From Candidatus Methylomirabilota bacterium (lineage in GTDB: Bacteria; Desulfobacterota; Binatia; Bin18): a DNA stretch of 64,000 nt. Positions 7,776 to 23,454 of this stretch are shown piece by piece (the stretch's first letter is position 1; every line of letters starts with the position of its first letter). The notes beneath the pieces are model-generated. The model ran no database searches. It saw only the letters and a program-made list of their open reading frames with translations, and was not told the origin of the DNA. The stretch spans positions 32,245-96,244 of the forward strand of contig DATLYA010000316.1 in NCBI GenBank assembly GCA_035575235.1, read 5' to 3'. Position numbers and translations under genes: made by a program.

Positions 7776-7846
7776 GAAAGAACCCCAACTTTTTTTGCTG
7801 CGGCATTTCTGGTAGGGTAGCGCAAATTTTCTCTAGGAGGAACCGC

Positions 7847-8191
7847 ATGGCGGAAACAACGAAAGTCACCGAAGGTGAAGAGATTAGTAAAGCAGTCTGG
7901 CACTACGTCGGGGTTGGCGTCTTATGGCTCTCCCTGATCTTCACAGGCCTGGCATTGGAACGGCTCGGACTGACCTCGAACTACCTCACGAGCGTGATCC
8001 CTGGCGAGGTGAACAGTCTCAAGAGTCGAGTTGACAGCTTAGAAACCGAAAAACGCAAAGTAGCGGATGAAAATCAACGCCTTAAGGGCCTCATTGGTCG
8101 TGAGCAAGCTACCGCCGATGCGTTAAACATCTGCCAGGGCGAGAAGCAAAAGCTTGAGGCCGAACTTAAGCAACTCAAAGGCAGCCACTAA
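7847..8191 (+). CDS. Hypothetical membrane-anchored coiled-coil protein
   Basis: AGGAGG RBS, one hydrophobic segment (VGVGVLWLSLIFTGLAL), then a heptad-like charged C-terminus. Confidence 0.5.
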   Translation: MAETTKVTEGEEISKAVWHYVGVGVLWLSLIFTGLALERLGLTSNYLTSVIPGEVNSLKSRVDSLETEKRKVADENQRLKGLIGREQATADALNICQGEKQKLEAELKQLKGSH

Positions 8192-8301
8192 GCTACGAAC
8201 GTTCAGCCTTCAGCTTCCGACAAAAACATCCATGCAGAAAGAGCGACGATCCCTCACTCGTTCGTTATTGACCGTGTCTGGCTAACCGCTCGACGTTCTT
8301 C

Positions 8302-9114
8302 TTATATCCACTCCCGCCGGCGCCGGATAAATCCCTTTACAACTTCGGCCGTAGTTTCGGGCAGTTCGATATTGAACACATGACTGGCATTGGACAGGAT
8401 GAGTAAGTCTGCGTTGGGAATACGCTGAGCGAGCGTCAGCGAATTTTCCGGCGGCACTAAGCCGTCCTCCTTGCCAGTCACCACTAAAGTCGGCATCGTG
8501 AGCCGAGGTAAGCGATCGTACGTATCATGCCTCTGAATTGCCTGCATCTGCCGCACCATGCCATGTTTGGGCGTCGGATACTGCATGGAGAGTTGATTCA
8601 GCTGAAGCAATACGTCCATATGTTTCTGCATAAACCACGGCGTGACAGCCACCTTGGTCATAATGACCGCGGCTTGCTGGACATCGACGGATTCAATATC
8701 CGCCAGTATCTTCGCCACATCCGGATCTTTTGACAGGACAGCGTATTGTCCGCCACAGTGCGTGCACCCAAGAATAAGCGTCTTTACCCGTTGTGGGTAA
8801 CGTAGAGCAAACTCTTGCGCGATCATACCGCCCATAGAAATACCAAACACATGCGCCTGCTCGATGCCAAGGCTATCAAGCACGCCGGCGGTATCATCAG
8901 CAAACATTTGCATTGAGTATGGCGCATCAGGTTTATCGCTTCGCCCCACTCCTCGATTATCGAACACGATCGTGCGGAAATCGCGCGCAAAAGCCGGCAC
9001 GTTCCAGTGCCAGCCAACGGCGCTGACCGTAAATCCCATAATAAGAATCAAAGGCTCGCCGGCGCCGTGTTCTTCGTAGTACAGGGTAACGCCGTTGGCG
9101 GTAATGTGAGGCAT
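8302..9114 (-). CDS. Alpha/beta-fold hydrolase
   Basis: HG oxyanion region (LILIMGF), nucleophile elbow GISMGG, C-terminal SHVFN histidine. ATG at 9114 after AAAGGA. Confidence 0.8.
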   Translation of the reverse strand: MPHITANGVTLYYEEHGAGEPLILIMGFTVSAVGWHWNVPAFARDFRTIVFDNRGVGRSDKPDAPYSMQMFADDTAGVLDSLGIEQAHVFGISMGGMIAQEFALRYPQRVKTLILGCTHCGGQYAVLSKDPDVAKILADIESVDVQQAAVIMTKVAVTPWFMQKHMDVLLQLNQLSMQYPTPKHGMVRQMQAIQRHDTYDRLPRLTMPTLVVTGKEDGLVPPENSLTLAQRIPNADLLILSNASHVFNIELPETTAEVVKGFIRRRREWI

Positions 9115-9246
9115 GGGTAGTCCTTTCAAAGTGGCAAGTAGCAAGGCATGAGCGGCAAGTGGGAAAGTGACCAGTGAAAAGTTATGGATGAAAACTTAAA
9201 AACCCCGGCCTCTTCACTTGCCACTTTTCATTCCACTCTTCACTGC

Positions 9247-9667: not shown

Positions 9668-9760
9668 GTAGGGGCGTGGCGCACCCCTACGGCGCAGAGC
9701 GCTTGTGCTGCTAGAGTGTGAGCGCCGATTTTGATCGTCAAAGTTCATTAAAGTTCATTA
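9668..9760 (+). repeat. Hairpin + 57-nt repeat, copy A (upstream of luxE-like gene)
   Basis: gtaggggcgtggcgcacccctac hairpin (9668-9690), followed by gcagagcgcttgtgctgctagagtgtgagcgccgattttgatcgtcaaagttcatta (9694-9750). The last 10 nt are duplicated in tandem (9751-9760). Confidence 0.7.
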
Positions 9761-9893
9761 GCGAGAACTCTACCGTATTTCTTCCATAGGACCAACCCCG
9801 GAAAAAGACAGCAATAGAGATTGGAGACAGAGAAAGAAACAGGGGGCGGCTCGGTTTCAGTTATTTTTCTCTACTGTCCACTTGCTGCAGGTC

Positions 9894-10009
9894 TGTCATT
9901 CTGAGACTCCTTCGGCTCTGCTCAGGATAAACTCCAGCCGAAGAATCTCCTGACACGACCCTGCTTTGGGAGATTCTTCGCCGTCGCTGCGCTCCAGCTC
10001 AGAATGACA
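9894..10009. repeat. Nested-palindrome (MITE/REP-like) element
   Basis: Perfect 12-nt terminal inverted repeats tgtcattctgag / ctcagaatgaca. Internal inverted pair cgaagaatctcc / ggagattcttcg. Confidence 0.65.
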
Positions 10010-10071: not shown

Positions 10072-11136
10072 ATGAATACTCCGATACTCGATTTCATTCG
10101 CAACCCCGCAGGCCAGGACTTTAATGCCCTGGCGTTGCAAGTATTTGCCTACCAGTTTGAACATAATTTGCCCTACCAGCGGTTCTGTCTTGCCCGCCGG
10201 CAGACACCGGAGACCGTGTCACGTTGGCAAGACATTCCCGCCGTGCCTACCGTCGCCTTCAAAGAGCTGGATCTCACCTGTGGGCCGCCGGAAAAGATTT
10301 TTCGCACCAGCGGGACAACGCGCGGGCAAGAGAAACGCGGACGGCATCTTGTGCCGGATTTACAACTGTACCGTGAGTCGGCGCTCGCGCATTTCGCCGC
10401 GTGCGTGCTGCCGGATCACCGCCGCTCGCCGATGCTTGCGTTGATTCCTTCGCCGGAAGCGCGCCCCGATTCGTCCTTGACGCAAATGGCCACATGGGTC
10501 ATGCAAGCCTACGGCGAGACGGGAAGCGCCTATTTCATAGACCCGCACGGCATTCATCTCGACGCGTTTACCGAGGCCGTTTATCAGGCGCAACGCGAGG
10601 GCGTCCCGGTCTGTATTCTCGCGATTACTTCCGCATTAGTAGCGTTCTTCGATCAGTGCGAGGCAAAAGGACGGAGCTTCTCTCTCCCCGGCGGCAGCCG
10701 CATTATGGACACTGGCGGCAACAAAGGTGCAGGCCGTGTGATCTCCCGCAAGGGCTTTCTGCAGTCCTGCTGGAAATATCTTAAAATCGCCGGCTACTAC
10801 TGCGTCAACGAATACGGCATGACGGAAATGGCCTCACAGTTTTACGACAACGTGCTGTACAACCGCTCCCGCCGCAGCAACGAGCCGCGCTACAAGATTG
10901 GTCCGGCGTGGACCCGCACGGTCGTGGTTGATCCGGAAACGCTGCAAGAAGTTCCTCCTGGGCAAACAGGCATCCTGCGCCACTTCGACTTAGCGAACGC
11001 CGGCTCAGTTCTGGCGATTCAAACGGAAGACATAGGCTACGCGGTAGGCGACGGTTTTGAGATCACAGGCCGTGTGCTTGGCGCTGAGCCGCGCGGCTGC
11101 GCGCTTGCGCTGGATGAATTTTTAGCAGCGCAATAG
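10072..11136 (+). CDS. LuxE-family acyl-protein synthetase (adenylate-forming fatty-acid activating enzyme)
   Basis: WQDIPAVPTVAFKELDL...IFRTSGTT matches Vibrio LuxE IDDIPVFPTSVFKF...WFTSSGTN. C-terminus PRGCALALDEFL matches LuxE QKGCALSLTEAF. Confidence 0.85.
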   Translation: MNTPILDFIRNPAGQDFNALALQVFAYQFEHNLPYQRFCLARRQTPETVSRWQDIPAVPTVAFKELDLTCGPPEKIFRTSGTTRGQEKRGRHLVPDLQLYRESALAHFAACVLPDHRRSPMLALIPSPEARPDSSLTQMATWVMQAYGETGSAYFIDPHGIHLDAFTEAVYQAQREGVPVCILAITSALVAFFDQCEAKGRSFSLPGGSRIMDTGGNKGAGRVISRKGFLQSCWKYLKIAGYYCVNEYGMTEMASQFYDNVLYNRSRRSNEPRYKIGPAWTRTVVVDPETLQEVPPGQTGILRHFDLANAGSVLAIQTEDIGYAVGDGFEITGRVLGAEPRGCALALDEFLAAQ

Positions 11137-11346
11137 TCGCGGATTATCCCGCTCAGGATAAATATGACAGAAGATCAACGTAAGAGATCGAAGCACAAGA
11201 ACCGCTTTTTAAGGCTTTGGCGGAGGCTCTACCAGTTAGATAAATTTCTCAGGGTCAAGGACTCTCAATTGGGCGACGTGCCGGTGGATCGGATAACCGA
11301 TCCATCGGGCCAATAGCGCCTCTTACAGTGTCGCGGGGATAGTTTA

Positions 11347-11433
11347 GAGGGGCACGGCGCGCTGTGTCCCTCCAGTGCAGAGCGCTTGTTCTGCTGGAGT
11401 ATGAGCGCCGACTTTGATCGGCAAAGTTCATTA
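11347..11433 (+). repeat. Hairpin + 57-nt repeat, copy B (downstream of luxE-like gene)
   Basis: gaggggcac..gtgtccctc hairpin, then gcagagcgcttgttctgctggagtatgagcgccgactttgatcggcaaagttcatta (11377-11433). This is 52/57 identical to copy A, in the same orientation. Confidence 0.7.
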
Positions 11434-11549
11434 GAGGTCTTGCTGAAAGCGCGAAGCTGGGTCCTAACGCTGTCCGGCACACCGGTCCAGACTTTCACAG
11501 CTACGTTTCCCCTCCCCGACTTTACGTATCACGCCCGCTCTTCTATTTT

Positions 11550-12857
11550 TTGCTTGTGTCTCTGCTCTCGGTTGCTCACCTCAATGACATAGTGGATCGA
11601 CTGCTGGTCGCCCGCGAGCGGACGCTACTCACGCGCTCAGTCAAGAACATTGCGACGCGTATTGACCGCGTTGTTGCTCGCTTCCTTGATTCTGCCTCTG
11701 CCGCGTATCAAGAGGCCGTCGCAAGACTTCCAGAGGAAACCGGGCTCTCACCGGAGATGATTCGCCACACCCTACCGCTGATTTTTCAGGAGTACCGCAG
11801 CGCAAAGCTGATGGAGCTGCTTGATAATGAACTGGGAGCAGCAAGCACACTCGACAGATTCGAGCCGACATGGCGAGGCGAGCGCCGCGCCTGCGGCTTT
11901 CCGCTGATTACCCAAGTGCTGGCTGGCAACATTCCTGGCGCCGGGCTCGACGGCGTCATCTTCGCACTGCTGGTGAAATCGGCCACGCTGGTGAAGACGG
12001 CGTCTGCGGCGCCGTTTCTTCCGCTACAGTTTGCTCGCGTGCTCAATGAGGTTGATCCGGAGCTTGGCCAATGCCTTGCCATCGTCAGTTGGTCGGGAGG
12101 AAATACCGCCTTAGAAGAGGTCGCCTTTTCCCGCGCCGATATCGTGCTGGCCTCGGGATCAGACGAAAGCCTTGCGGCCATTCGTCGGCGCACGCGTGGG
12201 AGGTTTCTTGGCTATGGTCATAAGATCAGCTTTGCCGTAATTGACAAGAATTCGTTGCCCAACGCGCCGACGCTCGCACAGCGCGCTGCTTATGATGTCA
12301 CATTGTTTGATCAACAGGGGTGTCTCTCGCCGCAACTTATTTATGTGCAAGACGGAGGCGCGGCGACTCCTCCAGAGTTCGCAGCGCTGCTCGCGCAAGG
12401 GCTTGCTTACTGGCAACAGCAGCTGCCGCGCGGTGCAATTCCACCAGCAGCAAGTATGGCGATTCGACGCTTACGAGACCAGGCTGAGTGGCAAGCATTA
12501 GCAGGAAAAGACGTGATGCTCTATGCGAGTCCGCACGGCACTGAATGGACCGTTCTCTATGAAGCTGAGCCAACGTTTGCGCCTTCACCGTTGTATCGTA
12601 CTGTGCGCGTCAAACCCTTTTACTCTTTTACGCAACTGGCCGAACTGTTGACTCCTATGCGTCCTTTTCTCGAAGCTGCTGGGGTTGCCATCGCTGCGGA
12701 ACAGTTTGCCCAAGCCGTGGAGCTGCTCGGACAAGCCGGAGTCAGCCGGATATGTCCGATTGGCGCCATGCAACCGCCTCCTCTGAGCTGGCGGCATGGC
12801 GGGAGGCCGCGCCTTGCGGATTTGGTGCGGTGGACGGAAATAGAAAGGAAAGAGTAG
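11550..12857 (+). CDS. LuxC-family acyl-CoA/acyl-protein reductase (aldehyde-forming)
   Basis: ALDH-superfamily-like 435-aa ORF with LFDQQGCLSPQ, the LuxC catalytic-Cys context. Paired with the LuxE homologue. The TTG start is uncertain. Confidence 0.75.
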   Translation: MLVSLLSVAHLNDIVDRLLVARERTLLTRSVKNIATRIDRVVARFLDSASAAYQEAVARLPEETGLSPEMIRHTLPLIFQEYRSAKLMELLDNELGAASTLDRFEPTWRGERRACGFPLITQVLAGNIPGAGLDGVIFALLVKSATLVKTASAAPFLPLQFARVLNEVDPELGQCLAIVSWSGGNTALEEVAFSRADIVLASGSDESLAAIRRRTRGRFLGYGHKISFAVIDKNSLPNAPTLAQRAAYDVTLFDQQGCLSPQLIYVQDGGAATPPEFAALLAQGLAYWQQQLPRGAIPPAASMAIRRLRDQAEWQALAGKDVMLYASPHGTEWTVLYEAEPTFAPSPLYRTVRVKPFYSFTQLAELLTPMRPFLEAAGVAIAAEQFAQAVELLGQAGVSRICPIGAMQPPPLSWRHGGRPRLADLVRWTEIERKE

Positions 12858-12888
12858 CCGGCAGCCAGTAGCCAACATGAAAAAAAAG

Positions 12889-12971
12889 GAATCGGAGAAC
12901 CGGAGACGGGGAGAAGCGGCGAGAGGTCCCTTTTCCCTCACCGTTTCTCCGTTGCGCCGATTCTCCGGTTC
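12889..12971. repeat. Long imperfect intercistronic hairpin (GGAGAA/TTCTCC-rich)
   Basis: Left arm is ggaatcggagaaccggagacggggagaagcggcgagagg. Right arm is ccctcaccgtttctccgttgcgccgattctccggttc. Confidence 0.5.
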
Positions 12972-13016
12972 GTTCTTCTTGCCGACCCTAGAGCGCTCAC
13001 GTATGTTGCTATACGT

Positions 13017-14219
13017 ATGAGCGCCCTTCGGGATGATTTTTTCCGCTTCGTTGCGCAGACCTCGCCCGAGCCGATTGGCATCGAAGTCGAGCGAGCGCAC
13101 GGGTGCATCATTGTAGACAAAAGAGGTCAGGAATACCTCGACCTGCTGTCGGGTATCGGCGTGGCGAGTCTTGGCCATGCGCATCCAGAGGTCGTACAAG
13201 CCATCAAAGACCAGGCGGACCGTTACCTTCATACGATGGTGTACGGCGAATACATTCAAGAACCACAGGTGCGTTTAGCCGCAAAACTTGCCGAAATTGT
13301 TCCTCATCCGTTGTCGATGACGTATTTCACTAACAGTGGCGCGGAAGCGATCGAAGGCGCGTTAAAGACAGCGCGCAAATATACTGGCCGGTCGCGTTTT
13401 GTCAGTTTCCACGGCAGCTTTCACGGTGATACGTTTGGCGCGTTATCGGTAGGCGGGAATCCGTTGTATCGGGCCCCGTTTGAACCGTTGCTTCCCTTGG
13501 TCTCCTTCTTGCCGTTTGGCGATTTCGATGCGATAGCTGCTATAGACGCCACGGTCGCGGCTGTGCTCATCGAACCGATTCAAGGAGAAGGCGGCGTCCG
13601 CATCCCTAACAGCGGCTATCTGGCAAGCCTACAAGAACGTTGTAAAGAAGTTGGCGCGCTGCTGATTTTTGACGAAGTCATCACCGGCCTCGGCAGAACC
13701 GGGCGGCTCTTTGCCGGCGCACACTGGAGCATCACCCCGGACATTCTCGTGCTCGCCAAGGCCCTGGGCGGCGGCATGCCGCTTGGCGCGTTTATCAGCA
13801 CGCCGGATATTATGGCGACTCTTGCTCACGACCCGCCGCTGGCGCATGTGACTACCTTTGGTGGGCATCCGGTGTGCTGTGCGGCGGGGCTTGCTTCTCT
13901 GGAGGTTATCCTGCGCGACCGATTGGCCCAACAGGCGCAAGCCGGCGGCGAAGAGTTTCTGCGGCGCTTGCGTGGACTCATCGGCACGGGCGGTCTCACC
14001 GGAGTGCGCGGCCGCGGCCTATTGATCGGGATGGACTTCGCCTCGCCGGAGGCAACAAAAAGTTTTGTCCGACGCTGTTTTGCCAGAGGCGTCATATTGG
14101 GTTGGACGTTACATCAAGATACCGTCGTGCGTCTGGCCCCGCCCCTGATTATTTCCTCTGAGGAAATCGCCCACGCCGTTGCCGTTATGCGCGAAGCGTT
14201 ACAGACGGGTGAGGCGTGA
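13017..14219 (+). CDS. Class-III (omega / acetylornithine-type) PLP aminotransferase
   Basis: LDLLSGIGVASLGHAHPEVV, TNSGAEAIEGALKTARKYTGR, LIFDEVITGLGRTG and VLAKALGGGMPLGA (PLP-Lys context). Confidence 0.85.
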   Translation: MSALRDDFFRFVAQTSPEPIGIEVERAHGCIIVDKRGQEYLDLLSGIGVASLGHAHPEVVQAIKDQADRYLHTMVYGEYIQEPQVRLAAKLAEIVPHPLSMTYFTNSGAEAIEGALKTARKYTGRSRFVSFHGSFHGDTFGALSVGGNPLYRAPFEPLLPLVSFLPFGDFDAIAAIDATVAAVLIEPIQGEGGVRIPNSGYLASLQERCKEVGALLIFDEVITGLGRTGRLFAGAHWSITPDILVLAKALGGGMPLGAFISTPDIMATLAHDPPLAHVTTFGGHPVCCAAGLASLEVILRDRLAQQAQAGGEEFLRRLRGLIGTGGLTGVRGRGLLIGMDFASPEATKSFVRRCFARGVILGWTLHQDTVVRLAPPLIISSEEIAHAVAVMREALQTGEA

Positions 14220-14295
14220 AACGTGTTGCGTGATGCGTACTGCGTATTCGCTTTACTCGTCTTTCGGCTCATGTCATAAACTTACGTCATACGTT
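14209..14295. repeat. ACGCA/TGCGT-rich repeat family, copy 2
   Basis: gaggcgtgaaacgtgttgcgtgatgcgtactgcgtattcgc ... cttacgtcatacg. Close to the reverse complement of the right arm at 22380-22420. Confidence 0.45.
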
Positions 14296-14311
14296 TTTGC
14301 AGGAGATGATC

Positions 14312-14944
14312 ATGCCGAAGGATACTGTTTCGACTCAGCAATCCCTCTCCCCCGAAACCTTCTTCAAAGAAAAAGTCGCTCCGCAGTTTAGCCGCCGCAT
14401 TGAGGACCTGCGACGGCAGATCATGACGCTGGAACAGCAGGTGCAGGAGCGCCTCACTGCCCAAGGAACAGTGCGTATTGTCGTAGAAGGCGACGGCGGC
14501 GGCGCGTGGTATTTGAACATCAACAAAGGTGAAATGACAGTCACGATGGAACCAGCGTTTCCGCCAGTCATGACCGTGTATCAGCCGCGTGGCTATTTCG
14601 ATTGGGCGGTGTCGATGACCTCTGACGCGGGACTGTTTGGCCCTGGCGCGCGGAGTACTCAAGGCGAGCTGACCAGATCACGCCTGGAGCGCTTGAAGAT
14701 GCTCAAAGGCCTGTTGCAATTTACCTTTACTCATCTCCCGGATGGCGGCGAGCACAGTTTTTGGATTTATTTCGGCGATGGCGAGCGCCCTGCTGTAGCA
14801 CAGACTGTCCTCTCCATCAAAGCGGAAGACGCACAGAGGCTTGCGCGCGGAGAATTGAACCCGCAAGTGGCGTTCATGAGCGGCATTATTAAGGTGACCG
14901 GCGATATGGCGCTCGCTATGCAGTTCGGCGCGGCGATGATGTAG
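14312..14944 (+). CDS. SCP2 sterol/lipid-carrier domain protein
   Basis: C-terminal ...LARGELNPQVAFMSGIIKVTGDMALAMQFG is the canonical SCP2 tail. ATG at 14312 is 6 nt after AGGAG. Confidence 0.7.
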   Translation: MPKDTVSTQQSLSPETFFKEKVAPQFSRRIEDLRRQIMTLEQQVQERLTAQGTVRIVVEGDGGGAWYLNINKGEMTVTMEPAFPPVMTVYQPRGYFDWAVSMTSDAGLFGPGARSTQGELTRSRLERLKMLKGLLQFTFTHLPDGGEHSFWIYFGDGERPAVAQTVLSIKAEDAQRLARGELNPQVAFMSGIIKVTGDMALAMQFGAAMM

Positions 14945-15024
14945 CTATGAACGGCCAGTATACCGGGGTTTCCGCTTTTCGCTAAACGCCCGTGGCCCTT
15001 CCTTTTTCGTACAACAGCCCAGGT

Positions 15025-16233
15025 TCAGTCACGGCAGCTTCCCTCCCGACGGCGTTGAGCTCTCTGAAGGAATACCCATAATAATCCTCCAGCAAAGACA
15101 TATGTTCCGATCGCCGTTGCCCACAGGAACCATGAGAGTCGGTCAAAGAGCGCGAGCAGGAACAGCATATAGGCGAAATCTCTTCCGGTGATGCGCTCGT
15201 ACAGTTCCATCAGTGGCGTTCTCTTTCCGTCTTTTTCCGTCAGGCCTGCAGAGGAACGGAAAATCGCGACATACGCGACAGCCATTGCACAGAGCACTCC
15301 CAGCAAGGTAACGAACGCCAAGGTTATATACAGCGGCAATTGGGTCTCACGATACAGGCTCACTGCAATGCCGGGAAACAACAGCAGGTGGACAATATTG
15401 TCGGCGATCAGATCAAATTTCGCGCCGAAGTCGGACTCTAAAAACTTGAGGCGGGCCAGCTCCCCGTCACAACCGTCAATTGTTGTGGAGACCAGTAATA
15501 CCACCGCCCCGCACACGCGTGGCCAATAGTGCGGCTGTATGAGCAGCCAGACACTCAACAGCCCAAGGGCAAACGAGAACGCGGTAATCTGGTTCGGCGT
15601 GATGCGTGTATGAGCAAGTCGGCGAGTGACGGCGCGCGAGACTTTGCGATCGAGCGCCCGCGCCAGAAAGCCGTCCGTGTCGCGCCCCAAGCTCGCGAAC
15701 AAACGCCGCTCGACCTCTTGCTGTCCAAGCGTGAGCGGCGCCCATAACCCCTTATGAATGGTTACAGGGGACAGGGAACAGGGAACAGGGAACGGTGTAG
15801 GAGGTGTTCGGAGTTTCGTCCGCAATAGCGTCCACAAGCATGGTGCTGCCCCGCGATAGACGTCCGTCTCCTGGCCGGAGCCAGTCAAGAACGTTACCGG
15901 CGTTGGCGCTGGGAGTGGAGAGGTCAGCGCCTGACGGATGAATGCCGAGGTGAAAACGGCCGTACACGACAGCAGAAGGGCTTCGGCGTCTCCGATCCAG
16001 TTGCTCAGCAGCTTTTCGCTTGCTTCAATCTGATCGATGAGGGCATAGGATATCCTTTGTAACCGCGGCTCCGATGTCAAGAGCTGCTGGATTGGGAAAA
16101 TCTCAATCTGCGAGATGATCAGCCACTCGGTCACGCCACCCCTGTGGCCGGCGCAGAGTGCGCGAGCGAGCAGCGGCAGTCCCGCGACAACCATCAACGC
16201 CGCTTGATCGTGCACCAGTAAAATGGCCTTCAT
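15025..16233 (-). CDS. CDP-alcohol phosphotransferase (DIPPS-like membrane domain) fused to a degenerate nucleotidyltransferase-like N-domain
   Basis: Signature DGCDGELARLKFLESDFGAKFDLIAD (D-G-x2-A-R-x8-G-x3-D-x3-D). Preceded by DGFLARALDRKVSRAVTRRLAHTRITPNQIT, as in IPCT/DIPPS enzymes. Multiple TM helices. The N-terminal 150 aa starts MKAILLVHDQAALMVVAGLPLL. Confidence 0.75.
   Translation of the reverse strand: MKAILLVHDQAALMVVAGLPLLARALCAGHRGGVTEWLIISQIEIFPIQQLLTSEPRLQRISYALIDQIEASEKLLSNWIGDAEALLLSCTAVFTSAFIRQALTSPLPAPTPVTFLTGSGQETDVYRGAAPCLWTLLRTKLRTPPTPFPVPCSLSPVTIHKGLWAPLTLGQQEVERRLFASLGRDTDGFLARALDRKVSRAVTRRLAHTRITPNQITAFSFALGLLSVWLLIQPHYWPRVCGAVVLLVSTTIDGCDGELARLKFLESDFGAKFDLIADNIVHLLLFPGIAVSLYRETQLPLYITLAFVTLLGVLCAMAVAYVAIFRSSAGLTEKDGKRTPLMELYERITGRDFAYMLFLLALFDRLSWFLWATAIGTYVFAGGLLWVFLQRAQRRREGSCRD
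15765..15792. repeat. 4 x tandem heptamer CAGGGRA inside the CDS linker
   Basis: cagggga cagggaa cagggaa cagggaa. Encodes FPVPCSLSPV on the minus strand. Confidence 0.8.
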
Positions 16234-16239
16234 AGTTGA

Positions 16240-17253
16240 TCACAAGGGAAGACGCACGCCTCCCTGCCGATGCGACGCATATCCTTGCTGTAAAAGCGCC
16301 AGACACGTCGCGGCGGCGCGAAGATTTGCTTCACCAGAAGATGGCTCTTCCAGGGCCTGGTAAAAATCATCGAGCAGCGGCGCGAACCATTCAGGGTGAT
16401 AAGAGGAGGCGATTATCGACTCGGGAAATCGTTGCGCGCATCCGGGCTCGTCAGGGCGCTCAAGGAGTAAGGAGACGGCGTCGAAATAAATCGTTCCTTT
16501 CGTTCCGCGTACGTATCCCTCATTGGCCCGGCGGTCGGCTCTCCAGGTGAGGTAAAATTGGACGCTTGCACTCCCGCAGCTTATGGTTCCCGCCGCTGTC
16601 TCTTCAATATCAACGGCGCCGCAGCCTGGAGGTTCGAGCCGCGCGGCGATTGCAGTTGGCGCTTTTTGCAAAAGAAAAGGCGCGAGATAAAACAGATGCC
16701 ACCCATGATCTACCAGAATGCCGCCGCCGGCTATGCGCCGATCTGTTCGCCATGACCCCGAGCCATGCGATGCGCCGGCTGGGTGGGCGCGCAGGACCTT
16801 CCACGCCAAACACTCAGGCGCGCCAATCGTCTCAGCTGCGATGGTTGCCCGTAGAGTTTGCAAAAGCGGCGCGTATTGCCAATTGTGCACGGTAAAAACA
16901 GCACGGTCGCGTTCAACGGCGTACCGTTGCAGTTGTCGCATGAGTGCGGCAGAGAGCGTCAGCGGCTTCTCACATAAAATGTGCACACTCTGTTCACACG
17001 CGCGCAGCAAGACGGTGTCGTGCAGCATCGGAGGCGTACAAATATCAACGAAGTCAATCTGCTCACGCGCCAGGCAGGCTTCGATGCTACCATAACACGC
17101 CGCGTCCGGCAGGAGGGTGCGCGCCAGCTGTAACCGCTCAGGCAACGGGTCGACAACAGCTATGAGCTCGAAACGCGTGTCCTGCAGCCAGGCTGAAAGA
17201 TGGCCATGGACCGCAACATTGCCAAAGCCAATGATCGCTCCTCGATAGCTCAC
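16240..17253 (-). CDS. Gfo/Idh/MocA-family NAD(P)-dependent dehydrogenase
   Basis: GAIIGFGNVAVHGH Rossmann N-terminus and ...ILCEKPL... motif. Confidence 0.8.
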   Translation of the reverse strand: MSYRGAIIGFGNVAVHGHLSAWLQDTRFELIAVVDPLPERLQLARTLLPDAACYGSIEACLAREQIDFVDICTPPMLHDTVLLRACEQSVHILCEKPLTLSAALMRQLQRYAVERDRAVFTVHNWQYAPLLQTLRATIAAETIGAPECLAWKVLRAHPAGASHGSGSWRTDRRIAGGGILVDHGWHLFYLAPFLLQKAPTAIAARLEPPGCGAVDIEETAAGTISCGSASVQFYLTWRADRRANEGYVRGTKGTIYFDAVSLLLERPDEPGCAQRFPESIIASSYHPEWFAPLLDDFYQALEEPSSGEANLRAAATCLALLQQGYASHRQGGVRLPL

Positions 17254-18599
17254 GCCTGGTAATCCACCTTATCAGCCACGAAGTCAAAGACCTCGTCAAG
17301 AATGGCGAGGCCCGTCTCCGCCAGCTCCAAAGAAATCGTCAGCGGCGGATTGAGCCGCACACGCGGCATGTAGCCCATCATGAGTAGTCCGCGCTTCAAT
17401 GCCTCTTGAAAAATCAGCTCCGTCACTTCGCGACGCAGCCCGATTTTGGACTGACGATCCTTCACCAGATCGAGGCCGATCAACAACCCTGCCCCACGCA
17501 CATCGCCGAGAAACTCGTACTTCTCTTGCATGGCGCGCAACCGCTCAAGCATGAAGGCGCCAACCCGCCGGGCGTTGTCTACTACTCCCTCGTCTTCGAT
17601 CGTCTCTATCGTACTCAACGCAGCAGCGGCCGCCAGCGGGTTTCCCCCATAACTCGACGAGGATGCACTGGGCTGAGAAAATGGCTTCGCCGCCATTATC
17701 TCATCACTGGAGATGACCCCAGTAACGGGAAATCCATTACCCATCCCTTTACCAACAGTCATGATGTCTGGCGTCACGCCGCTTAGCGCACAGCCAAACA
17801 GGTTTCCCGTGCGGCCAAAGCCGGTGATCATCTCGTCAACAATGAACAGGGCGTCATGCTCCCGGGCGACCTCTTTCATTACGGGAAGAAACTCAGGCGG
17901 AGGAACGATATTCCCCGCCGTGCCCTGCACCGGCTCGATGAGAAACGCCGCGATGGCGCCGCCGCTCGTGTGCTTCAGGCTCGTGCGAATGAAATCGGCG
18001 CAGGCGAGCCCGCATCCTGGGTAGCGCAGGTTGAGCGGACAACGATAGCAATCGGCATAGGGCACAAGATGAGTTCCACCAGGCAAGGGCCCCCAGCCCT
18101 GCTTAAAATTGTCGCCAACGAGGCCGAGCACCCCACCCGTCTTGCCATGAAATCCGCCCCAAAAGCCGACAACCTCATATTTTTTCGTGTATGCTTTCGC
18201 CAGCCGCAGCGCCGCCTCCACCGCCTCGGCGCCGCCGCTGAACAATTGAATCCGGTTGAGGTTGCCAGGCGTCAGCGCCGCAATTTTTTGCACAAGCCGT
18301 ACGCGCGCCTCCGAGGTGAAACTCCCGACAGTCACCCGGCGTAACTGTTCTTCAAGGGCGGCAACGTAGCGGGGATGGCTGTGCCCCAGGCTCGCCACAG
18401 TTACCCCGGCAAAAAAGTCGATAAAGGTGTTGCCGTCAACGTCCGTCAGAGTTGCGCCCTCGCCGTGGTCAAAGACCACGCCAGAGAGCAGAGAGATGCG
18501 CTGAATGCCTGGCGCCAAAAACGCCTGCTCAGTCTTCACTAACTGTTGCGAGCGCGGACCAGGAACACTCGTTCTTACAACCGGAAGCTTGCCACTCAC
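17250..18599 (-). CDS. Class-III PLP aminotransferase (GabT-like)
   Basis: FIDFFAGVTVASLGHSHP, SGGAEAVEAALRLAK, LFIVDEMITGFGRTG, MTVGKGMGNGFP. 4-nt overlaps with both neighbours. Confidence 0.85.
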   Translation of the reverse strand: MSGKLPVVRTSVPGPRSQQLVKTEQAFLAPGIQRISLLSGVVFDHGEGATLTDVDGNTFIDFFAGVTVASLGHSHPRYVAALEEQLRRVTVGSFTSEARVRLVQKIAALTPGNLNRIQLFSGGAEAVEAALRLAKAYTKKYEVVGFWGGFHGKTGGVLGLVGDNFKQGWGPLPGGTHLVPYADCYRCPLNLRYPGCGLACADFIRTSLKHTSGGAIAAFLIEPVQGTAGNIVPPPEFLPVMKEVAREHDALFIVDEMITGFGRTGNLFGCALSGVTPDIMTVGKGMGNGFPVTGVISSDEIMAAKPFSQPSASSSSYGGNPLAAAAALSTIETIEDEGVVDNARRVGAFMLERLRAMQEKYEFLGDVRGAGLLIGLDLVKDRQSKIGLRREVTELIFQEALKRGLLMMGYMPRVRLNPPLTISLELAETGLAILDEVFDFVADKVDYQA

Positions 18600-19459
18600 A
18601 GCGCTTGTTGTATCCGGCCCAGCAGGTGGTCAGCAATCGCCTGCGCCGCCGCATGGCGGCAGCGAGCAAAGCTTGGCCAATCGTTTAAGTCGATCAGCAC
18701 GAGAGTTCCCTCCGCTGAGAGGATACAATCTCCGCCAAAGACTTCAAGTCCAACCGCAGACGCTGCCCGGGTCGCCAAGGCGCCGACCTGCCGGCGCGTG
18801 TGCGCTTCAACCTCGGGGCAATCAAAGAAGCAACCAGGACCAACTCCATAAAACTTGATGACCGGCCCAGGGCAATGCCTTTGCAGCAGCGCTTGGACAA
18901 TGCCGCGACGAGCAAATGCCGCGAGCGCGGCATGATATGCGGCTGCTTCTTGCACAAAGACGACATCATCCGGCTGCGTGGCGTGCACGTCGGCGCGTTT
19001 AAGCCAGAAGCCGCCTGAAAAATCTGTAGGCCCAGGCTCCCGTGCCTGCCCATCTCTAGGACGCCTCTGGCAGGTTGCCCCTACGAAAGGTAGGAAAGAG
19101 AGTGCGTGAGAAGCGTCTGCAGTATTCACCGCCCAACTTTCCGGCATCAATACTCCCGCCGCGCGGCACAGCTCAACAGTCCGCGCCCGGCGGCAATTCC
19201 AGACCGCTGTGGGACTGTTAATCACCAGTGAACCGTGAGCCTGCCAGTGTTGAAGCTTGTGCAAATTCGCTCCTCCCTGCGCCATGGAAAACACTAGCCC
19301 TGGAGGCTTGGCGTCGCTCTGCAGCTCCTCCGTGCTCCAAAGCCGGACACGAACGCCACGCCGCCCAACCTCAGCAGCGACGGCTTCAAGGATGAGCGCA
19401 TCGTCACCGGTCCGTCCGGGAGAGAACATCGCTTCCCGGTACACGCCAACCACCTCCAT
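18596..19459 (-). CDS. ATP-grasp fold protein (ligase or ITPK1-like kinase type)
   Basis: ...FWLKRADVHATQPDDVVFV...VIKFYGVG...GLEVFGGDCILSAEGTLVLIDLNDWPSF resembles the ATP-grasp C-terminal Mg/ATP site. Start taken at ATG 19459, after GAGGAGG. The ORF-track start 19588 is the alternative. Confidence 0.55.
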   Translation of the reverse strand: MEVVGVYREAMFSPGRTGDDALILEAVAAEVGRRGVRVRLWSTEELQSDAKPPGLVFSMAQGGANLHKLQHWQAHGSLVINSPTAVWNCRRARTVELCRAAGVLMPESWAVNTADASHALSFLPFVGATCQRRPRDGQAREPGPTDFSGGFWLKRADVHATQPDDVVFVQEAAAYHAALAAFARRGIVQALLQRHCPGPVIKFYGVGPGCFFDCPEVEAHTRRQVGALATRAASAVGLEVFGGDCILSAEGTLVLIDLNDWPSFARCRHAAAQAIADHLLGRIQQAL

Positions 19460-19595
19460 TGCTTCCGCCTCCTCGCTCTGCCCCGGATTGTATTTCAGGC
19501 CACAGGGTTGGTCATGAGAAAAGCCGGGAGAGAATAGCCATGGCCTGTGTACGATGTATGGAGCGCCAACTATGTTTGCGCACTCCACAGTGCGC

Positions 19596-20315
19596 TTAGA
19601 GCGGGGTTAGACATTTCTCCTCTTCAGCAAGAAACGCCTCCGCCACAGCGATATCAGAGGGACGGTCTACATCAATTACTTTAGAAATATGATGTCCATA
19701 GAGCACATAACCGCTCGCAACGAGATAGCCGAAGAACTGACGCAAGGCGGTAAAATTCCTGTGCTGCGCTGTCTCTGCCTCCCGGAACACGCTCGGTGAG
19801 AACCAATACACCCCAGCAGTCACCAGTCCACCGGTGCGCGCCGATGGACCAAGCTGAACAACGCGATAGTCTTCGGCAAGCATCGCCCATAATGGTTTTT
19901 CATCATCAACGAATGACGTAACGCCGAGCACGCCATCGGCGTCAGGATGCCGCCGCGCCGTTGCTACCAATGCCGGAATTGTCGAGGAAGGAAACACCGC
20001 ATCGACCGTACAAAGCAGAAACGAATCTGCGTCAAGATACGGCTGCAGCGTCAGAAAACTCTCCAAGGAATGCGCTGTGCTTTTGCTCAACAGCGTGACG
20101 GGCATTCCCCATTCATGCTCCCGGCAATATTGAATGACCTCGGAAAATTTCTGGTTGACGATAACAACAGCTGCTTCGATTCCAGCTTGCTGAAGCCCGC
20201 GCAGGAGACGGGCGATGAGCGGTTGTCCGGCCAGCAGCGTCAGCGGTTTTGGCGTTGTCACACCGTGCGCTCGTAAACGCTGTCCTTCGCCAGCCGCAAG
20301 GATTGCCGCTCTCAT
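19596..20315 (-). CDS. Nucleotidyltransferase (LicC / IPCT-like cytidylyltransferase type)
   Basis: MRAAILAAGEGQRLR....PKPL is the intact G-x-G-x-R signature. About 240 aa with a ...GVYWFS... and ...VIDVDRPSDIAVAE tail, as in LicC-like enzymes. Confidence 0.8.
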   Translation of the reverse strand: MRAAILAAGEGQRLRAHGVTTPKPLTLLAGQPLIARLLRGLQQAGIEAAVVIVNQKFSEVIQYCREHEWGMPVTLLSKSTAHSLESFLTLQPYLDADSFLLCTVDAVFPSSTIPALVATARRHPDADGVLGVTSFVDDEKPLWAMLAEDYRVVQLGPSARTGGLVTAGVYWFSPSVFREAETAQHRNFTALRQFFGYLVASGYVLYGHHISKVIDVDRPSDIAVAEAFLAEEEKCLTPL

Positions 20316-20752
20316 CCCTCAATCTTCCCCCACGCAATGATTTTTTGCGGCGTGATGCGCACCACAGCATTGCCAGGAAAAATGAGGTTCATCACGCGGT
20401 ACTGCGGATAACGCTCTCTCAGCAACGCAAGCGCGGCGGCGTGTTCCGTTTCAGCCTCGACGATGTGGGCGGAACCTCTGACCATCACATACGCCAACTG
20501 CGTCCAATCGTCACTGTAATCATCAATGACAAGCGCGACTTGAGGATTTTCCAGAATATTGCGAATGCGTTTCAGCGGTTTGCCAGTCTGCTTCTTAGGT
20601 TTCTCATCAACAATAAAATAGAAACGAGCCCCATCGAACGCGTAGCAGAACGGAATAACATGAGGTTGCCCATGTGCGTCGGCAGTCGCTAAGCGCGCCA
20701 CGGCGTGGGACAGAATGAAGCGGCGGATAGGTTCAGTAATTGCTATGGGCAT
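20312..20752 (-). CDS. Pyridoxamine-5'-phosphate-oxidase-fold protein (PPOX class, possibly F420/FMN dependent)
   Basis: About 146 aa split-barrel pattern: ...ARLATADAHGQPHVIPFCYAFDG..FYFIVDEKPK... Confidence 0.7.
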   Translation of the reverse strand: MPIAITEPIRRFILSHAVARLATADAHGQPHVIPFCYAFDGARFYFIVDEKPKKQTGKPLKRIRNILENPQVALVIDDYSDDWTQLAYVMVRGSAHIVEAETEHAAALALLRERYPQYRVMNLIFPGNAVVRITPQKIIAWGKIEG

Positions 20753-20778: not shown

Positions 20779-20818
20779 CACCCTCACATTCCCCTCAGGA
20801 GAGAGGGACAAGGTGAAG
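20779..20818. repeat. G/C-run palindromic repeat (CCCTC..GAGGG family), copy 2
   Basis: caccctcacattcccctcaggagagagggacaaggtgaag. Overlaps the last codons of the MBL gene. Confidence 0.4.
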
Positions 20819-21844
20819 CGAATCGACCTCCTCAGCCGATCCTTCTCCGCGAAACGCCTCTTGCGCCTCGCGATAGATCCGCTCAGCTTGCCCCGCGTAC
20901 CGCGGAGAGAAATGAAACACCACTAATTTTTTCACTCCTGCCGCACGCGCCAACAGGCCGGCCTGACGGGCGGTCAAATGGTAGCGCTTCGTGGCCTGAT
21001 CCTCGTCCTCAGTAAGAAATGGCGACTCACAGAAAAAGAGGTCTGCGTCGCGGGCCAATGTCGCAATGCGCGCGGCGTTGGCCGGGCTATACAACGTATC
21101 GACCACGTACGCGATCTTTTGTCCGCGCGTTTCTTTTATCAAGTGGCCGCGCACTTCGTGGAGGGGAAAATCACGAGCGTGTTCCACACCGTTTTTCTCC
21201 CGCCAACGTGCAGTCACAATATAATCGTCCGGCTCGTTCCGTCGCAGGGCGTGCTTCAGTTGCGAAAGCCACGGGCCAGTGGGCACGCCAAGCCGGGTCA
21301 GCATGTCCTTATCAACGTTCAGATGACTTTTTTCTTCCAGGGCAAAACCAAGGGAGTAAATCCGGTGATCCAAATGCGCCGCTCGCACGAGAAAAGCAGG
21401 TTCATCGAGCACTACGCCATCCACCAACGGCGCCTCAGTGAGCGCCTCGGGACGAAAGGCGCTGGCCGCGGGAAACAGGACACGGCGAATGCGTTCAGGC
21501 GCGATTTCGGCAGCCTCGATCACAAAGCCGTAGTTATCTACCAGATTCCAGGTGTACCCGCGCAGCTTTCCGTCCACACAGTCGAGAATCCCCGGCGGAC
21601 CATACACCACGAGTTTTTTGTCGCGCGCCAGGAACAACCGCAACAGCCGATCGAACCCAATGAAGTGATCTATGTGACAGTGCGACACAAACACATGGGT
21701 CGCGCGGAGCAGTTCCGCAGCGGGAAGGGTGTCATTTTGTCCTAAATCGAACAACAACGCTCGCCCTTCCCAACGCAGATGAATATATAAGCCCGGATCA
21801 CCAAAGGGGTTGTTCACCAGGCGAGCAGTAAATGCAGGATTCAT
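20795..21844 (-). CDS. MBL-fold metallo-hydrolase (RNase Z / RNase BN-like)
   Basis: HVFVSHCHIDHFIGF (HxHxDH), later ...FCESPF... and ...VFHFSPRY... motifs. Confidence 0.8.
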   Translation of the reverse strand: MNPAFTARLVNNPFGDPGLYIHLRWEGRALLFDLGQNDTLPAAELLRATHVFVSHCHIDHFIGFDRLLRLFLARDKKLVVYGPPGILDCVDGKLRGYTWNLVDNYGFVIEAAEIAPERIRRVLFPAASAFRPEALTEAPLVDGVVLDEPAFLVRAAHLDHRIYSLGFALEEKSHLNVDKDMLTRLGVPTGPWLSQLKHALRRNEPDDYIVTARWREKNGVEHARDFPLHEVRGHLIKETRGQKIAYVVDTLYSPANAARIATLARDADLFFCESPFLTEDEDQATKRYHLTARQAGLLARAAGVKKLVVFHFSPRYAGQAERIYREAQEAFRGEGSAEEVDSLHLVPLS

Positions 21845-21939
21845 GCATATAGGAGACGACGAGAATACACGCTCGTCAACTCCAGGGAACCGGAGTCACG
21901 ACCAGCGCCGACAGAGCCATGGTCTGAAGCAAATGAGAG

Positions 21940-22221
21940 TTACTGCCGTTTCAAAATAACAAATTGTTCCTTCATTTTGCTGACCTGATCTTGAATCGAC
22001 GGCAGATGGCGACTCTCCTTCAAGACCTGAAACACGTCGATATCCGACGCTTCGCGACGTCCTTCGGCAATTTCCCGGACGGCGTCGATGATCTCGTGGA
22101 TGACACGAGGGATTTCCCGTTGCGGAATCACTAAGTCGCCACGCCCTAGCGTCCCGCCCCAATGCGCGGCATAGGGACGGAGCACATTAAGGATTTTTTC
22201 CGTCACGCTTTTTTCAGCCAT
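21940..22221 (-). CDS. Hypothetical protein (93 aa)
   Basis: ATG at 22221 is preceded by a GGAAGGAGGAA RBS. No family recognised. Confidence 0.5.
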   Translation of the reverse strand: MAEKSVTEKILNVLRPYAAHWGGTLGRGDLVIPQREIPRVIHEIIDAVREIAEGRREASDIDVFQVLKESRHLPSIQDQVSKMKEQFVILKRQ

Positions 22222-22297
22222 TGGTATTCCTCCTTCCCCCCAGCGCCTTCCTTGCGGTTGAGCATTATCACTGTTGCCGCATGGCATTGCAAGAGAT

Positions 22298-22420
22298 GTG
22301 GAACGTGGGGTGTGGTGCGTACGGCGTGGTGCGTGTGACGTGTTGCGTAATTCGCAACATGGGATGTTGATGCTTCACGCACTACGCTTCACGTATCACG
22401 TTTCACCACCACGCCTCACG
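22298..22420. repeat. ACGCA/TGCGT-rich inverted repeat family, copy 3 (largest)
   Basis: The left half is GTGCGT-type (gtggtgcgtacggcgtggtgcgtgtgacgtgttgcgtaattcg). The right half is ACGCAC-type (cttcacgcactacgcttcacgtatcacgtttcaccaccacgcctcacg). Confidence 0.6.
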
Positions 22421-23267
22421 TTTTTTCTCCCTCGCCGCCGTATTTCTTCCCTAACTCCAGCGCTTCAGGCACGCCGAGCAGCGTGGTGATTTCACCAAAG
22501 GCGCCGGGCTCTGTGCTGTGCGTTATGGCGCCGGTGCGTTTGAGTTCTCGCATAGCGTCGCGCATCCGCAGGTAGAACACCGTCAAAGTCGCGGAGTTGA
22601 TCATGAGTTTGAAGCCCATCTTCGCGGTGTCCTGTACGGACAGCAGTTGCCCATTATACAGCAGCGGTAGCCCGCTCAGTTCTTGCACATATCGCTTCAT
22701 GTCCTCGAGCGTACGGATACCGTCAACAAAAATCAGATCAGCGCCCGCCTCGCGATAGGCATATGCCCGATTTTTGACGTCTTCCCATCCTGTCACGGCC
22801 AGCGCATCCGTGCGGGCAATAATGATCATATCCTTGCGCGCATCACAGGCGGCGCGCACCTTTGGCGCCATTTCCGCCAACGGAATGACTTGTTTCCCAG
22901 CCAGGAAACCACACCGCTTTGGCCAGACTTGATCTTCTATATGCAGCGCGGCGGCGCCTGCGGCCTCATACTCACGCACAGTGCGATAGACATTGACCGG
23001 ATTGCCGTAGCCGGTATCCGCATCGCAGATGAGAGGGATATCAACAGCGTTGGCGATGTAGCGCACGTTTTCGACCATCTCGGCCATCGTCAGCAAACCA
23101 ACATCAGGAAACCCGCGCGCCGCCGCCGTGCCGAAGCCCGTCATGTACACGGCCTCGAACCCGGCTGCTTGCGCGATTTTGGCCTGGAAGGCGTCAAACA
23201 CAAATGGAGCGACGACCATGTCCGCGCCCTGCAGCATCTGACGTAAACGTTGTCCTGCCTGTGACAT
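22416..23267 (-). CDS. Isocitrate lyase / PEP mutase superfamily enzyme (methylisocitrate lyase / oxaloacetate decarboxylase-like)
   Basis: ...VVAPFVFDAFQAKIAQAAGFEAVYMTGFG...ICDADTGYGN...ALHIEDQVWPKRCG. ATG at 23267 after AAGGAGG. Confidence 0.85.
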   Translation of the reverse strand: MSQAGQRLRQMLQGADMVVAPFVFDAFQAKIAQAAGFEAVYMTGFGTAAARGFPDVGLLTMAEMVENVRYIANAVDIPLICDADTGYGNPVNVYRTVREYEAAGAAALHIEDQVWPKRCGFLAGKQVIPLAEMAPKVRAACDARKDMIIIARTDALAVTGWEDVKNRAYAYREAGADLIFVDGIRTLEDMKRYVQELSGLPLLYNGQLLSVQDTAKMGFKLMINSATLTVFYLRMRDAMRELKRTGAITHSTEPGAFGEITTLLGVPEALELGKKYGGEGEKT

Positions 23268-23454
23268 ACGCTTCTCCTCCTTTTTGTCGAACACAGCGAC
23301 GCCGTGCTTTTACGACCAGAGATCGGCAATCGCGACAGACACGTCCGGCAGGAGAGCAAGCGCCGGCCGCTTATCTGGCGCTGAACGGATAGTCTGCCTA
23401 TAGCCGTCAGCGCCAGGTTGCCGATACACTTCTACTTCTTCTTGCGACACTGGG

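Follow-up and report, generated by a model that had tools for sequence, protein, structure and literature searches.

Gene content of the convergent locus

We describe a cluster of ten open reading frames (ORFs) in a genome labelled Candidatus Methylomirabilota bacterium (assembly GCA_035575235.1, contig DATLYA010000316.1), in which genes resembling luxE and luxC face a set of genes that includes a CDP-alcohol phosphotransferase. The window that we analyzed is a stretch of 64,000 nucleotides (nt) of this contig, and all positions are given in window coordinates. Four plus-strand and six minus-strand ORFs occupy positions 10072-20752 and converge on a spacer of exactly 80 nt (14945-15024) between the genes for an SCP2-domain protein and the phosphotransferase. 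A preliminary description, made from the sequence alone, had placed the ORFs and the spacer at these coordinates, and both stand. It had also taken the two gene groups to be operons of one candidate undescribed biosynthetic locus, a claim that, when relatives are compared, fails outside a narrow clade. In the explanation to which we give slightly better than even credence, two self-contained modules that are inherited separately, A (10072-14944, plus strand) and B (15025-20315, minus strand), lie side by side in this region. The window proteins that were looked up form one accession run (HXG21490-HXG21499) and are all generically named.

Module A begins with an adenylate-forming, LuxE-like acyl-protein synthetase of 354 aa (10072-11136; PF04443, 50 bits). 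Its residues 18-347 align with LuxE of PDB 7xc6, and the alignment retains the C-terminal acyl-carrying cysteine (EPRGC343ALAL versus EQKGCSLSM of 7xc6_E). The LuxC-like acyl-thioester reductase that follows (11550-12857; PF05893, 252 bits) has 435 aa as the longest ORF and 421 aa as annotated by NCBI, and it likewise keeps the catalytic cysteine (FDQQGC258LSPQ versus YDQQACFSTQ of 7xc6_A). Against the NCBIfam equivalogs, the LuxC-like protein scores 76 bits where the cut-off is 750 and the LuxE-like protein 44 bits where it is 550. The third gene encodes a class-III aminotransferase of 400 aa, AT1, of the ArgD/LysJ/putrescine-aminotransferase kind (13017-14219; PF00202, 358 bits), which at 378 bits falls under the cut-off of 410 for TIGR00707 argD. 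The last encodes a 215-aa protein (14297-14944; PF02036, 54 bits) in which residues 128-213 have the SCP2 fold and the N-terminal half matches no assigned family.

Module B, read in the direction of transcription, opens with a nucleotidyltransferase of 239 aa bearing the GxGxR signature (19596-20315; NTP_transf_3 PF12804, 59 bits; NTP_transferase PF00483, 41 bits). It has weak matches to AglF, GlmU-type, MurU and IPCT models, all under cut-off, and its matches in the PDB are MurU and mannose-1-phosphate guanylyltransferase. Next comes a 287-aa enzyme (18596-19459) from an unnamed family of the ATP-grasp superfamily. The superfamily had been named correctly at the outset; the start had not, since every homolog begins at M44 of the longer ORF (18596-19588). 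Pfam and NCBIfam profile searches bear out the other family names in the locus. The ATP-grasp ORF has no Pfam match at threshold, and its assignment comes from an AlphaFold model with a predicted local distance difference test score (pLDDT) of 90.9. The model matches D-Ala-D-Ala ligase, LysX/ArgX, RimK and PsnB (TM-score ~0.7, E ~1e-14). The Mg-binding D...D-x-N residues are present, D244, D257 and N259 being invariant, and weak profile matches were obtained to PsnB (2.7e-5), ITPK kinases (0.002-0.02) and RimK (0.003).

The third gene of module B encodes a second class-III pyridoxal phosphate (PLP) enzyme, AT2, of the 4-aminobutyrate-aminotransferase/archaeal type (449 aa; 17250-18599; PF00202, 332 bits). 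PF00202 covers the full length of both AT1 and AT2, and neither reaches any equivalog cut-off; the closest solved relatives of AT2 include both 4-aminobutyrate aminotransferases and amino-acid racemases or epimerases. A Gfo/Idh/MocA oxidoreductase of 337 aa follows (16240-17253; PF01408 at 71 bits, PF22725, PF02894), resembling iolG weakly (61 bits versus a cut-off of 355).

The module ends at the spacer with a CDP-alcohol phosphotransferase of 402 aa (15025-16233), whose CDP-OH_P_transf domain (PF01066, 51 bits) spans residues 211-374. Sequence profile and fold agree with its original assignment as DIPPS-like. The DGxxDGxxAR...G...D...D motif is intact in the transmembrane domain, with D253, G254, D256, G257, A260, R261, G270, D274 and D278 invariant. 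The family profile matches AF2299 at 2e-34 and IPCT-DIPPS at 6e-27, the latter match reaching into the N-terminal domain, and the structural model (pLDDT 90.7) aligns to both with TM-scores of 0.61-0.78. The N-terminal domain has a nucleotidyltransferase fold, with matches to RmlA and MurU and an alignment to 4mnd from residue 35, and it is poorly conserved and without the GxGxR signature. Because this domain is degenerate, the activation step would presumably come from the separate nucleotidyltransferase gene.

Are the two gene groups operons, as first described? The minus strand is tightly packed, with 4-nt overlaps between PPOX and the nucleotidyltransferase, between the ATP-grasp gene and AT2, and between AT2 and the oxidoreductase, and there the claim stands. 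On the plus strand a single operon is not assured: the intergenic gaps measure 413, 159 and 77 nt, and a terminator-like repeat lies within the first of them. This is a direct repeat of 72 nt with 86% identity, whose two copies lie at 9685-9756, 316 nt upstream of luxE, and at 11368-11439, inside the 413-nt luxE-luxC gap. Each comprises a GC-rich hairpin, a T-run and then the palindrome TTTGATCGnCAAAG. The window holds just these two copies, where zero are expected by chance, and the repeat is absent from the 87 related loci searched. Possible roles are those of a terminator, an attenuator or a common regulatory site, and in the first case the window would have separate transcripts for luxE and luxC. 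No intrinsic terminator was detected in the 80-nt spacer, and its fold energies are no better than those of shuffled sequences (z = +1.2, -0.5). No Rfam family or tRNA was found anywhere in the window. The GC content is 0.57-0.59 throughout the region, matching the flanks, and is uninformative on foreign origin.

Distribution of the two modules

The distribution of module B was established by scanning one genome per GTDB species with an alignment of the transferase, which gave 80 loci (L005-L084) among the matches listed. The window proteins were compared with these loci by tblastn, with flanks of up to 10 kb, and taxon names are the depositors' record labels throughout. The transferase relatives are 30-47% identical, with no close relative among the matches listed, the best of which are 34-47% identical. 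In 49 loci the flanks reach at least 6 kb on either side, and 34 of these contain a HAD phosphatase, the nucleotidyltransferase, the ATP-grasp enzyme and AT2. The Gfo/Idh/MocA gene is present in 23 of the 49, in 22 cases within the four-gene set, and HAD in 39. A gene for a B12-binding radical SAM protein lies just downstream of the transferase in 23 of the 34. AT2 remains 50-64% identical between genomes labelled as different phyla, and the host labels, Binatia, Syntrophobacter, Desulfoferrobacter, Acidobacteriota, Elusimicrobia, Nitrospira, Verrucomicrobiae, Chloroflexia and Alphaproteobacteria, span about eight phyla. No homolog of LuxC, LuxE, SCP2 or PPOX was detected within 10 kb in any of the 80 loci listed, all 49 well-flanked ones included.

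Domain fusions tie the parts of module B together along with the recurrent gene order. A full hidden Markov model search of 1.84 billion representative sequences places 564 clusters (50% identity) in the ATP-grasp family at E<=1e-30. Among the best 150 of these 564 we observed seven NTP_transferase-ATP-grasp fusions (P0403, P0416, P0429, P0441, P0454, P0459 and P0518), one HAD-NTP_transferase-ATP-grasp fusion of 802 aa (P0469) and one ATP-grasp-CDP-OH transferase fusion of 700 aa (P0474). The minus-strand genes other than PPOX, five in all, thus make up a real, widespread functional unit, of which the window carries a truncated copy; its HAD, B12-binding radical SAM and MMPL partners were searched for in the window and none was found. 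Elsewhere, an MMPL transporter gene lies within 10 kb of the transferase homolog in 12 of the 80 GTDB loci listed (L005, L015, L018, L042, L051, L057, L060-L063, L069 and L080). In L005 (1245-5437) it directly abuts the transferase, and the same locus has a second transferase paralog.

Module A recurs in the same independent manner. A metagenome scan gave 80 further loci among the matches listed; LuxE and LuxC are adjacent throughout them, and LuxC-like homologs of 59-70% identity are numerous. In the 22 LuxC loci with at least 6 kb on each side, again among the matches listed, LuxE accompanies LuxC in all, AT1 (counted at 45% identity or more) in 13, and module B in one. That single locus, L105, belongs to a known close relative and lies on the same contig as L003. 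AT1 homologs of 52-62% identity adjoin LuxE-LuxC, in either gene order, even where LuxC is merely 41-47% identical, and in these distant loci the trio sits among unrelated housekeeping genes. SCP2 is confined to loci with LuxC at least 61% identical, among the matches listed. Since LuxE-LuxC, often with AT1, recurs in distant loci amid unrelated genes and nearly always without B, we regard module A as a self-contained, separately inherited unit, a claim that shares the slightly better than even credence given above to the two-module explanation.

What, then, does the convergent junction look like in the narrow clade that has both modules? Gene order is as in the window in L001 and L002. L003 and L105 carry both modules with 3 kb of other genes in between, and L169 has AT2, a short oxidoreductase gene and the transferase facing SCP2-AT1-LuxC-LuxE. 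L004 retains PPOX, an intact transferase and, between the two, a 52-aa remnant of the oxidoreductase C-terminus (9843-10001), which is the scar of a deletion that took four cassette genes. In L168 the transferase stands alone amid SDR, ECH and thioesterase genes, convergent with SCP2-AT1-LuxC. The window-type transferases of these loci are 57-87% identical.

In six relatives of similar divergence (LuxC 61-66% identical), module A faces PPOX and an RNase-Z-like gene, with no module B. The pair of PPOX and RNase-Z-like metallo-beta-lactamase genes directly faces AT1 or SCP2, with no cassette between, in L085, L086, L087, L089, L100 and L103. Two complete genomes of about 5 Mb and one metagenome-assembled genome show the order NUDIX, alpha/beta-hydrolase, LuxE, LuxC, in some cases an insert, aminotransferase and in some cases SCP2, with PPOX, RNase-Z-like, PEP-mutase-like and PagL genes on the convergent side and no module B. 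Loci with and without B are intermixed in a neighbor-joining tree of LuxC. The presence of module B at some of these junctions and not at others looks like insertion or like repeated loss by deletion, and the A-B adjacency is limited to a narrow Methylomirabilota sub-lineage. Neither direction of comparison supports the one-locus claim: among the matches listed, none of the 49 well-flanked module B loci has module A, one of the 22 LuxC loci has the cassette, and the six relatives just described lack it.

The pairing in cassette-free relatives also settles the place of PPOX. This PPOX-class F420-dependent oxidoreductase (146 aa; 20312-20752, minus strand; PNPOx_N, 67 bits; TIGR03668, 141 bits versus a cut-off of 119) had been counted in the minus-strand operon. 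Its 4-nt overlap with the nucleotidyltransferase gene is real; its membership in the cassette is rejected, because the pair it forms with the RNase-Z-like gene faces module A where B is absent, making PPOX part of an older block. The RNase Z subfamily metallo-beta-lactamase (349 aa; 20795-21844, minus strand; NF002558, 411 bits versus a cut-off of 315) belongs to the flank, outside the pathway.

The flanks (7185-9144 and 20795-26088) form a syntenic block kept in relatives independently of module B. The first contains NUDIX and PcaD-like alpha/beta hydrolase genes; the second contains the RNase-Z-like gene, a methylisocitrate-lyase-like gene of the PEP_mutase family, a second alpha/beta hydrolase and a PagL-like outer-membrane protein. 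The PEP_mutase gene (22416-23294) raised the idea of a phosphonate pathway, which we rejected: it is methylisocitrate-lyase-like, below every cut-off, and lies in the conserved flank with the RNase-Z-like gene between it and the cassette. Within the clade, L003 differs in detail. Its ATP-grasp and AT2 genes are called as one product of 571 aa (7252-8967), either a fusion or a frameshift or annotation artefact, and its nucleotidyltransferase is short (191 aa) and 43% identical. A gene of the Bac_luciferase family (LLM-type) lies between the two modules in L003 (11393-12535), and another member of the family lies near module A in L087 (20798-21302); there is none near the window locus.

Predicted chemistry and competing explanations

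Domain identities, catalytic residues, folds, distribution and fusions come directly from the analysis, and on them the chemistry assigned module by module in the preliminary description, like its parts list, holds up, with the Lux cysteines conserved and AT1 accompanying LuxE-LuxC in distant loci. In module A, the LuxE-like enzyme would first adenylate its substrate, a carboxylic acid that is most likely fatty, and then load the acyl group onto its own C-terminal cysteine; the LuxC-like enzyme would receive the acyl group on its own cysteine and reduce it to the aldehyde; and the ArgD-like AT1 would turn the aldehyde into a primary amine. The carrier of the hydrophobic substrate or product in the window's clade is probably the SCP2-fold protein. 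Known LuxCE chemistry, together with the retained cysteines, makes the steps from acid through acyl-AMP, acyl-S-LuxE and acyl-S-LuxC to aldehyde the most likely course. The amination step is proposed because an ArgD/LysJ-like aminotransferase is the constant partner, and the presence of an AT1 homolog with LuxE-LuxC in many distant loci backs a carboxylate-to-aldehyde-to-amine module. Homology to Lux and the SCP2 protein are the sole pointers to the substrate, and they suggest a fatty one.

The most likely task of module B is to assemble a CDP-activated amino-polyol phosphate head group, by a logic of the Kennedy or di-myo-inositol-phosphate (DIP) type. An amino-polyol would be made by the dehydrogenase and the class-III PLP enzyme, a pair suited to oxidizing a polyol or sugar and then aminating it, and the ATP-grasp enzyme would phosphorylate or amidate this intermediate. 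The nucleotidyltransferase would then form an NDP-activated, probably CDP-activated, derivative, and the membrane CDP-alcohol phosphotransferase would link the head group by a phosphodiester to an acceptor hydroxyl. The ATP-grasp enzyme could be the missing kinase or an amide ligase. The completeness of the pathway, the fusions that join the enzyme to the nucleotidyltransferase and a weak match (FGGD...DLNDWPSF) to ITPK kinases speak for a kinase, and the nearest folds speak for a ligase.

Is the acceptor a lipid or a soluble polyol phosphate? We lean toward a lipid by a narrow margin. MMPL exporters near 12 of the 80 loci listed and hosts that are by label mostly non-thermophilic point to a lipid, and the soluble substrates of the nearest characterized relatives and the usual presence of a HAD phosphatase point to a solute. 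Substrates, step order, product and whether module A feeds module B are what we infer in this section.

Several observations weigh against two separate modules with these roles. The transferase is convergent with SCP2-AT1-LuxC in all six clade loci that have it, and it persists beside module A in L004 and L168, which are without the remaining four genes of the cassette. Such retention is expected if the transferase uses the product of module A, and it is what survives of the original single-pathway claim, which otherwise falls, outside the narrow clade, as a claim about one locus. The internal branches of the LuxC tree are very short, and Binatia-labelled records appear in both the A and B match lists, the A-B link having been tested as adjacency of genes at loci. 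In addition, the window copy of module B is without HAD and radical SAM partners, the nearest folds to the ATP-grasp enzyme are ligases and not kinases, and the nearest solved relatives of AT2 include racemases.

Could the whole region then encode one pathway to an amino-lipid? LuxE, LuxC, AT1 and SCP2 would supply a long-chain amine or amino-alcohol, which could be joined to the module B head group through an amide bond made by the ATP-grasp enzyme, a phosphodiester made by the CDP-OH transferase, or both. The adjacency of A and the transferase in six independent clade loci, two of them without the rest of B, argues for such a pathway, as do the carboxylate-amine ligase type of the ATP-grasp fold, the lipid ligand suggested by SCP2 and the fatty-acid genes (ECH, 4HBT, SDR) around the pair in L168 and L087. 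We nevertheless think it unlikely. Among the matches listed, 34 of the 49 well-flanked loci, from genomes labelled as about eight phyla, have B and no A within 10 kb, and 21 of the 22 LuxC loci have A and no B; at this site B is missing from relatives whose LuxC is similarly divergent; and among the best 150 of the 564 clusters the ATP-grasp domain is fused to NTP-transferase, HAD and CDP-OH transferase domains, never to LuxCE. Furthermore, neighbors at a convergent junction can be shared by a narrow clade through inherited synteny.

A bolder variant, which we hold to be slightly less probable still, is that both modules were recruited in this lineage into one pathway for a new membrane-lipid class, with module B on its own making a new phospho-amino-polyol head group. 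LuxE, LuxC and AT1 would turn a fatty acid into a long-chain amine, with SCP2 as its chaperone; the ATP-grasp enzyme would form an amide between this amine and a hydroxylated acid or an amino-polyol, and the DIPPS-like transferase would then join the amide product to a CDP-activated partner via a phosphodiester. The product would be analogous to the N-glyceroyl-alkylamine phospholipids of Deinococcus-Thermus, and the widespread module B head group, in genomes labelled as about eight phyla, would be of the aminopentanetetrol or inosamine type.

The strongest competitor to the two-module explanation, though still rather doubtful in our judgment, makes module B the source of a soluble aminated polyol-phosphodiester solute, an analog of di-myo-inositol-phosphate, whose position beside A is functionally meaningless. 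The nearest characterized relatives, IPCT-DIPPS and AF2299, use soluble CDP-alcohols, most loci have a HAD phosphatase such as a phosphatase step for phosphorylated DIP would need, and no lipid-synthesis gene is constant in the cassette. Set against these points, the hosts are by titles and sample names mostly bacteria of soil, peat and groundwater and not hyperthermophiles, the cassette is without inositol-phosphate synthase, MMPL exporters neighbor 12 loci among the matches listed, and DIPPS-like enzymes with lipid acceptors are known, according to the citation of Jorge et al. 2015 in PMC9246714.

Far less probable is the proposal that AT2 is a PLP amino-acid racemase or epimerase and that the ATP-grasp enzyme attaches a D-amino acid, so that module B decorates a phospho-head group with a D-aminoacyl residue. 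The top solved relatives of AT2 do include alanine/serine racemase, a broad-specificity racemase and isoleucine 2-epimerase (E 1e-66 to 1e-72), and D-Ala-D-Ala ligase is the best fold match of the ATP-grasp model. However, 4-aminobutyrate aminotransferases score equally well or better against AT2, the Gfo/Idh/MocA dehydrogenase beside it fits an oxidise-then-aminate pair, and the NTP-transferase-ATP-grasp fusions better fit a kinase followed by a nucleotidyltransferase.

With two separately inherited modules as our preferred reading, why do they merit attention? Both are conserved, numerous and undescribed in the literature searched. Gene order and fusions link the ATP-grasp family, for which Pfam has no model, to a DIPPS-like transferase. 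Genomes that carry this family are labelled Binatia, Acidobacteriota, Nitrospira, Verrucomicrobiae, Elusimicrobia and Methylomirabilota, and most were obtained from soil, peat or groundwater. If the product of module B were identified, the whole cassette would gain a function, and amino-phospholipid head groups that are orphans in environmental lipidomics might find an explanation. For module A, the grouping of LuxE, LuxC and an aminotransferase suggests that bacteria have a general route from acids to amines that is not tied to bioluminescence. The lesson of this case is that adjacency in a single genome overstated the link between operons A and B.

Comparison with known systems

Module A shares with the lux reductase (7xc6) both families, the adjacency of their genes and both acyl-carrying cysteines, and its LuxE- and LuxC-like enzymes probably work as that reductase does, by way of acyl-AMP and the two acyl thioesters. 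It is nonetheless, as the preliminary description had it, not a lux operon: the LuxC and LuxE equivalog cut-offs are missed about ten-fold, neither LuxD nor LuxAB was found among the ORFs scanned between 5609 and 26088, where the neighboring alpha/beta hydrolase is PcaD-like, and the aldehyde is predicted to reach an aminotransferase and not a luciferase.

In Deinococcus-Thermus, making the phosphoglycolipids of the phosphatidyl-N-glyceroyl-alkylamine type requires an alkylamine that comes from a fatty acid, together with an amide bond and a phosphodiester. LuxE/LuxC/AT, ATP-grasp and CDP-OH transferase enzymes could supply all three, which makes for a resemblance only, and in other phyla, unlike in such a scheme, module B works without module A. 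Our literature search for the alkylamine lipids of Deinococcus and Thermus returned structures (PMC3398001, PMC9636437) and no genes, and the search for aminopentanetetrol biosynthesis found no genes either. The same chemical logic as in module A, from fatty acid to aldehyde to alkylamine, underlies tambjamine biosynthesis, in a paper that takes LuxC as a point of comparison (bioRxiv 10.1101/2025.08.11.669332). That route differs in employing the ACP-dependent TabE together with TamH and in lying in a pigment cluster, whereas module A stands among housekeeping genes. Searches for LuxC/LuxE with aminotransferases or alkylamines otherwise returned only flagellin-glycosylation islands and a rearranged lux operon.

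For module B, the closest architecture is that of IPCT/DIPPS and AF2299 (4mnd, 4o6m), in which, as in the window transferase, a cytosolic domain of nucleotidyltransferase fold is joined to a transmembrane domain with the CDP-OH motif. The window protein, however, scores 82 bits against the IPCT/DIPPS equivalog NF041135, whose cut-off is 580, its N-terminal domain is without GxGxR, and the window has a separate nucleotidyltransferase gene as well as oxidoreductase, PLP-enzyme and ATP-grasp genes. The preliminary description had set the locus apart from canonical di-myo-inositol-phosphate synthesis. The missed cut-off and the degenerate N-terminal domain agree with it, as does the lack of a linked myo-inositol-phosphate synthase (MIPS), no MIPS-like family being found in the window or among the recurrent neighbors of the 80 GTDB loci listed.

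A trio of nucleotidyltransferase, CDP-OH transferase and HAD has been proposed, without confirmation, as a Kennedy-like CDP-inositol lipid route in Bacteroides vulgatus and Prevotella (PMC9246714), and the same article cites a Rhodothermus enzyme that acts as a CDP-inositol:dialkylglycerol transferase. This trio is the backbone of the widespread module B. Unlike module B, the Bacteroides/Prevotella cluster adjoins MIPS and is without ATP-grasp, class-III PLP and Gfo/Idh/MocA genes; the window, for its part, has the nucleotidyltransferase and CDP-OH transferase in one tight operon and no HAD. A literature search for the enzyme combination of cassette B returned nothing relevant, and one on AF2299 yielded nothing informative.

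That no characterized pathway matches was an early claim, and in the literature searched neither cassette has a described product or a paper. Placed among the known systems, module A is in our rating a LuxCE-type acid reduction coupled to transamination, and module B a Kennedy/DIP-type CDP-alcohol transfer with amino-polyol tailoring.

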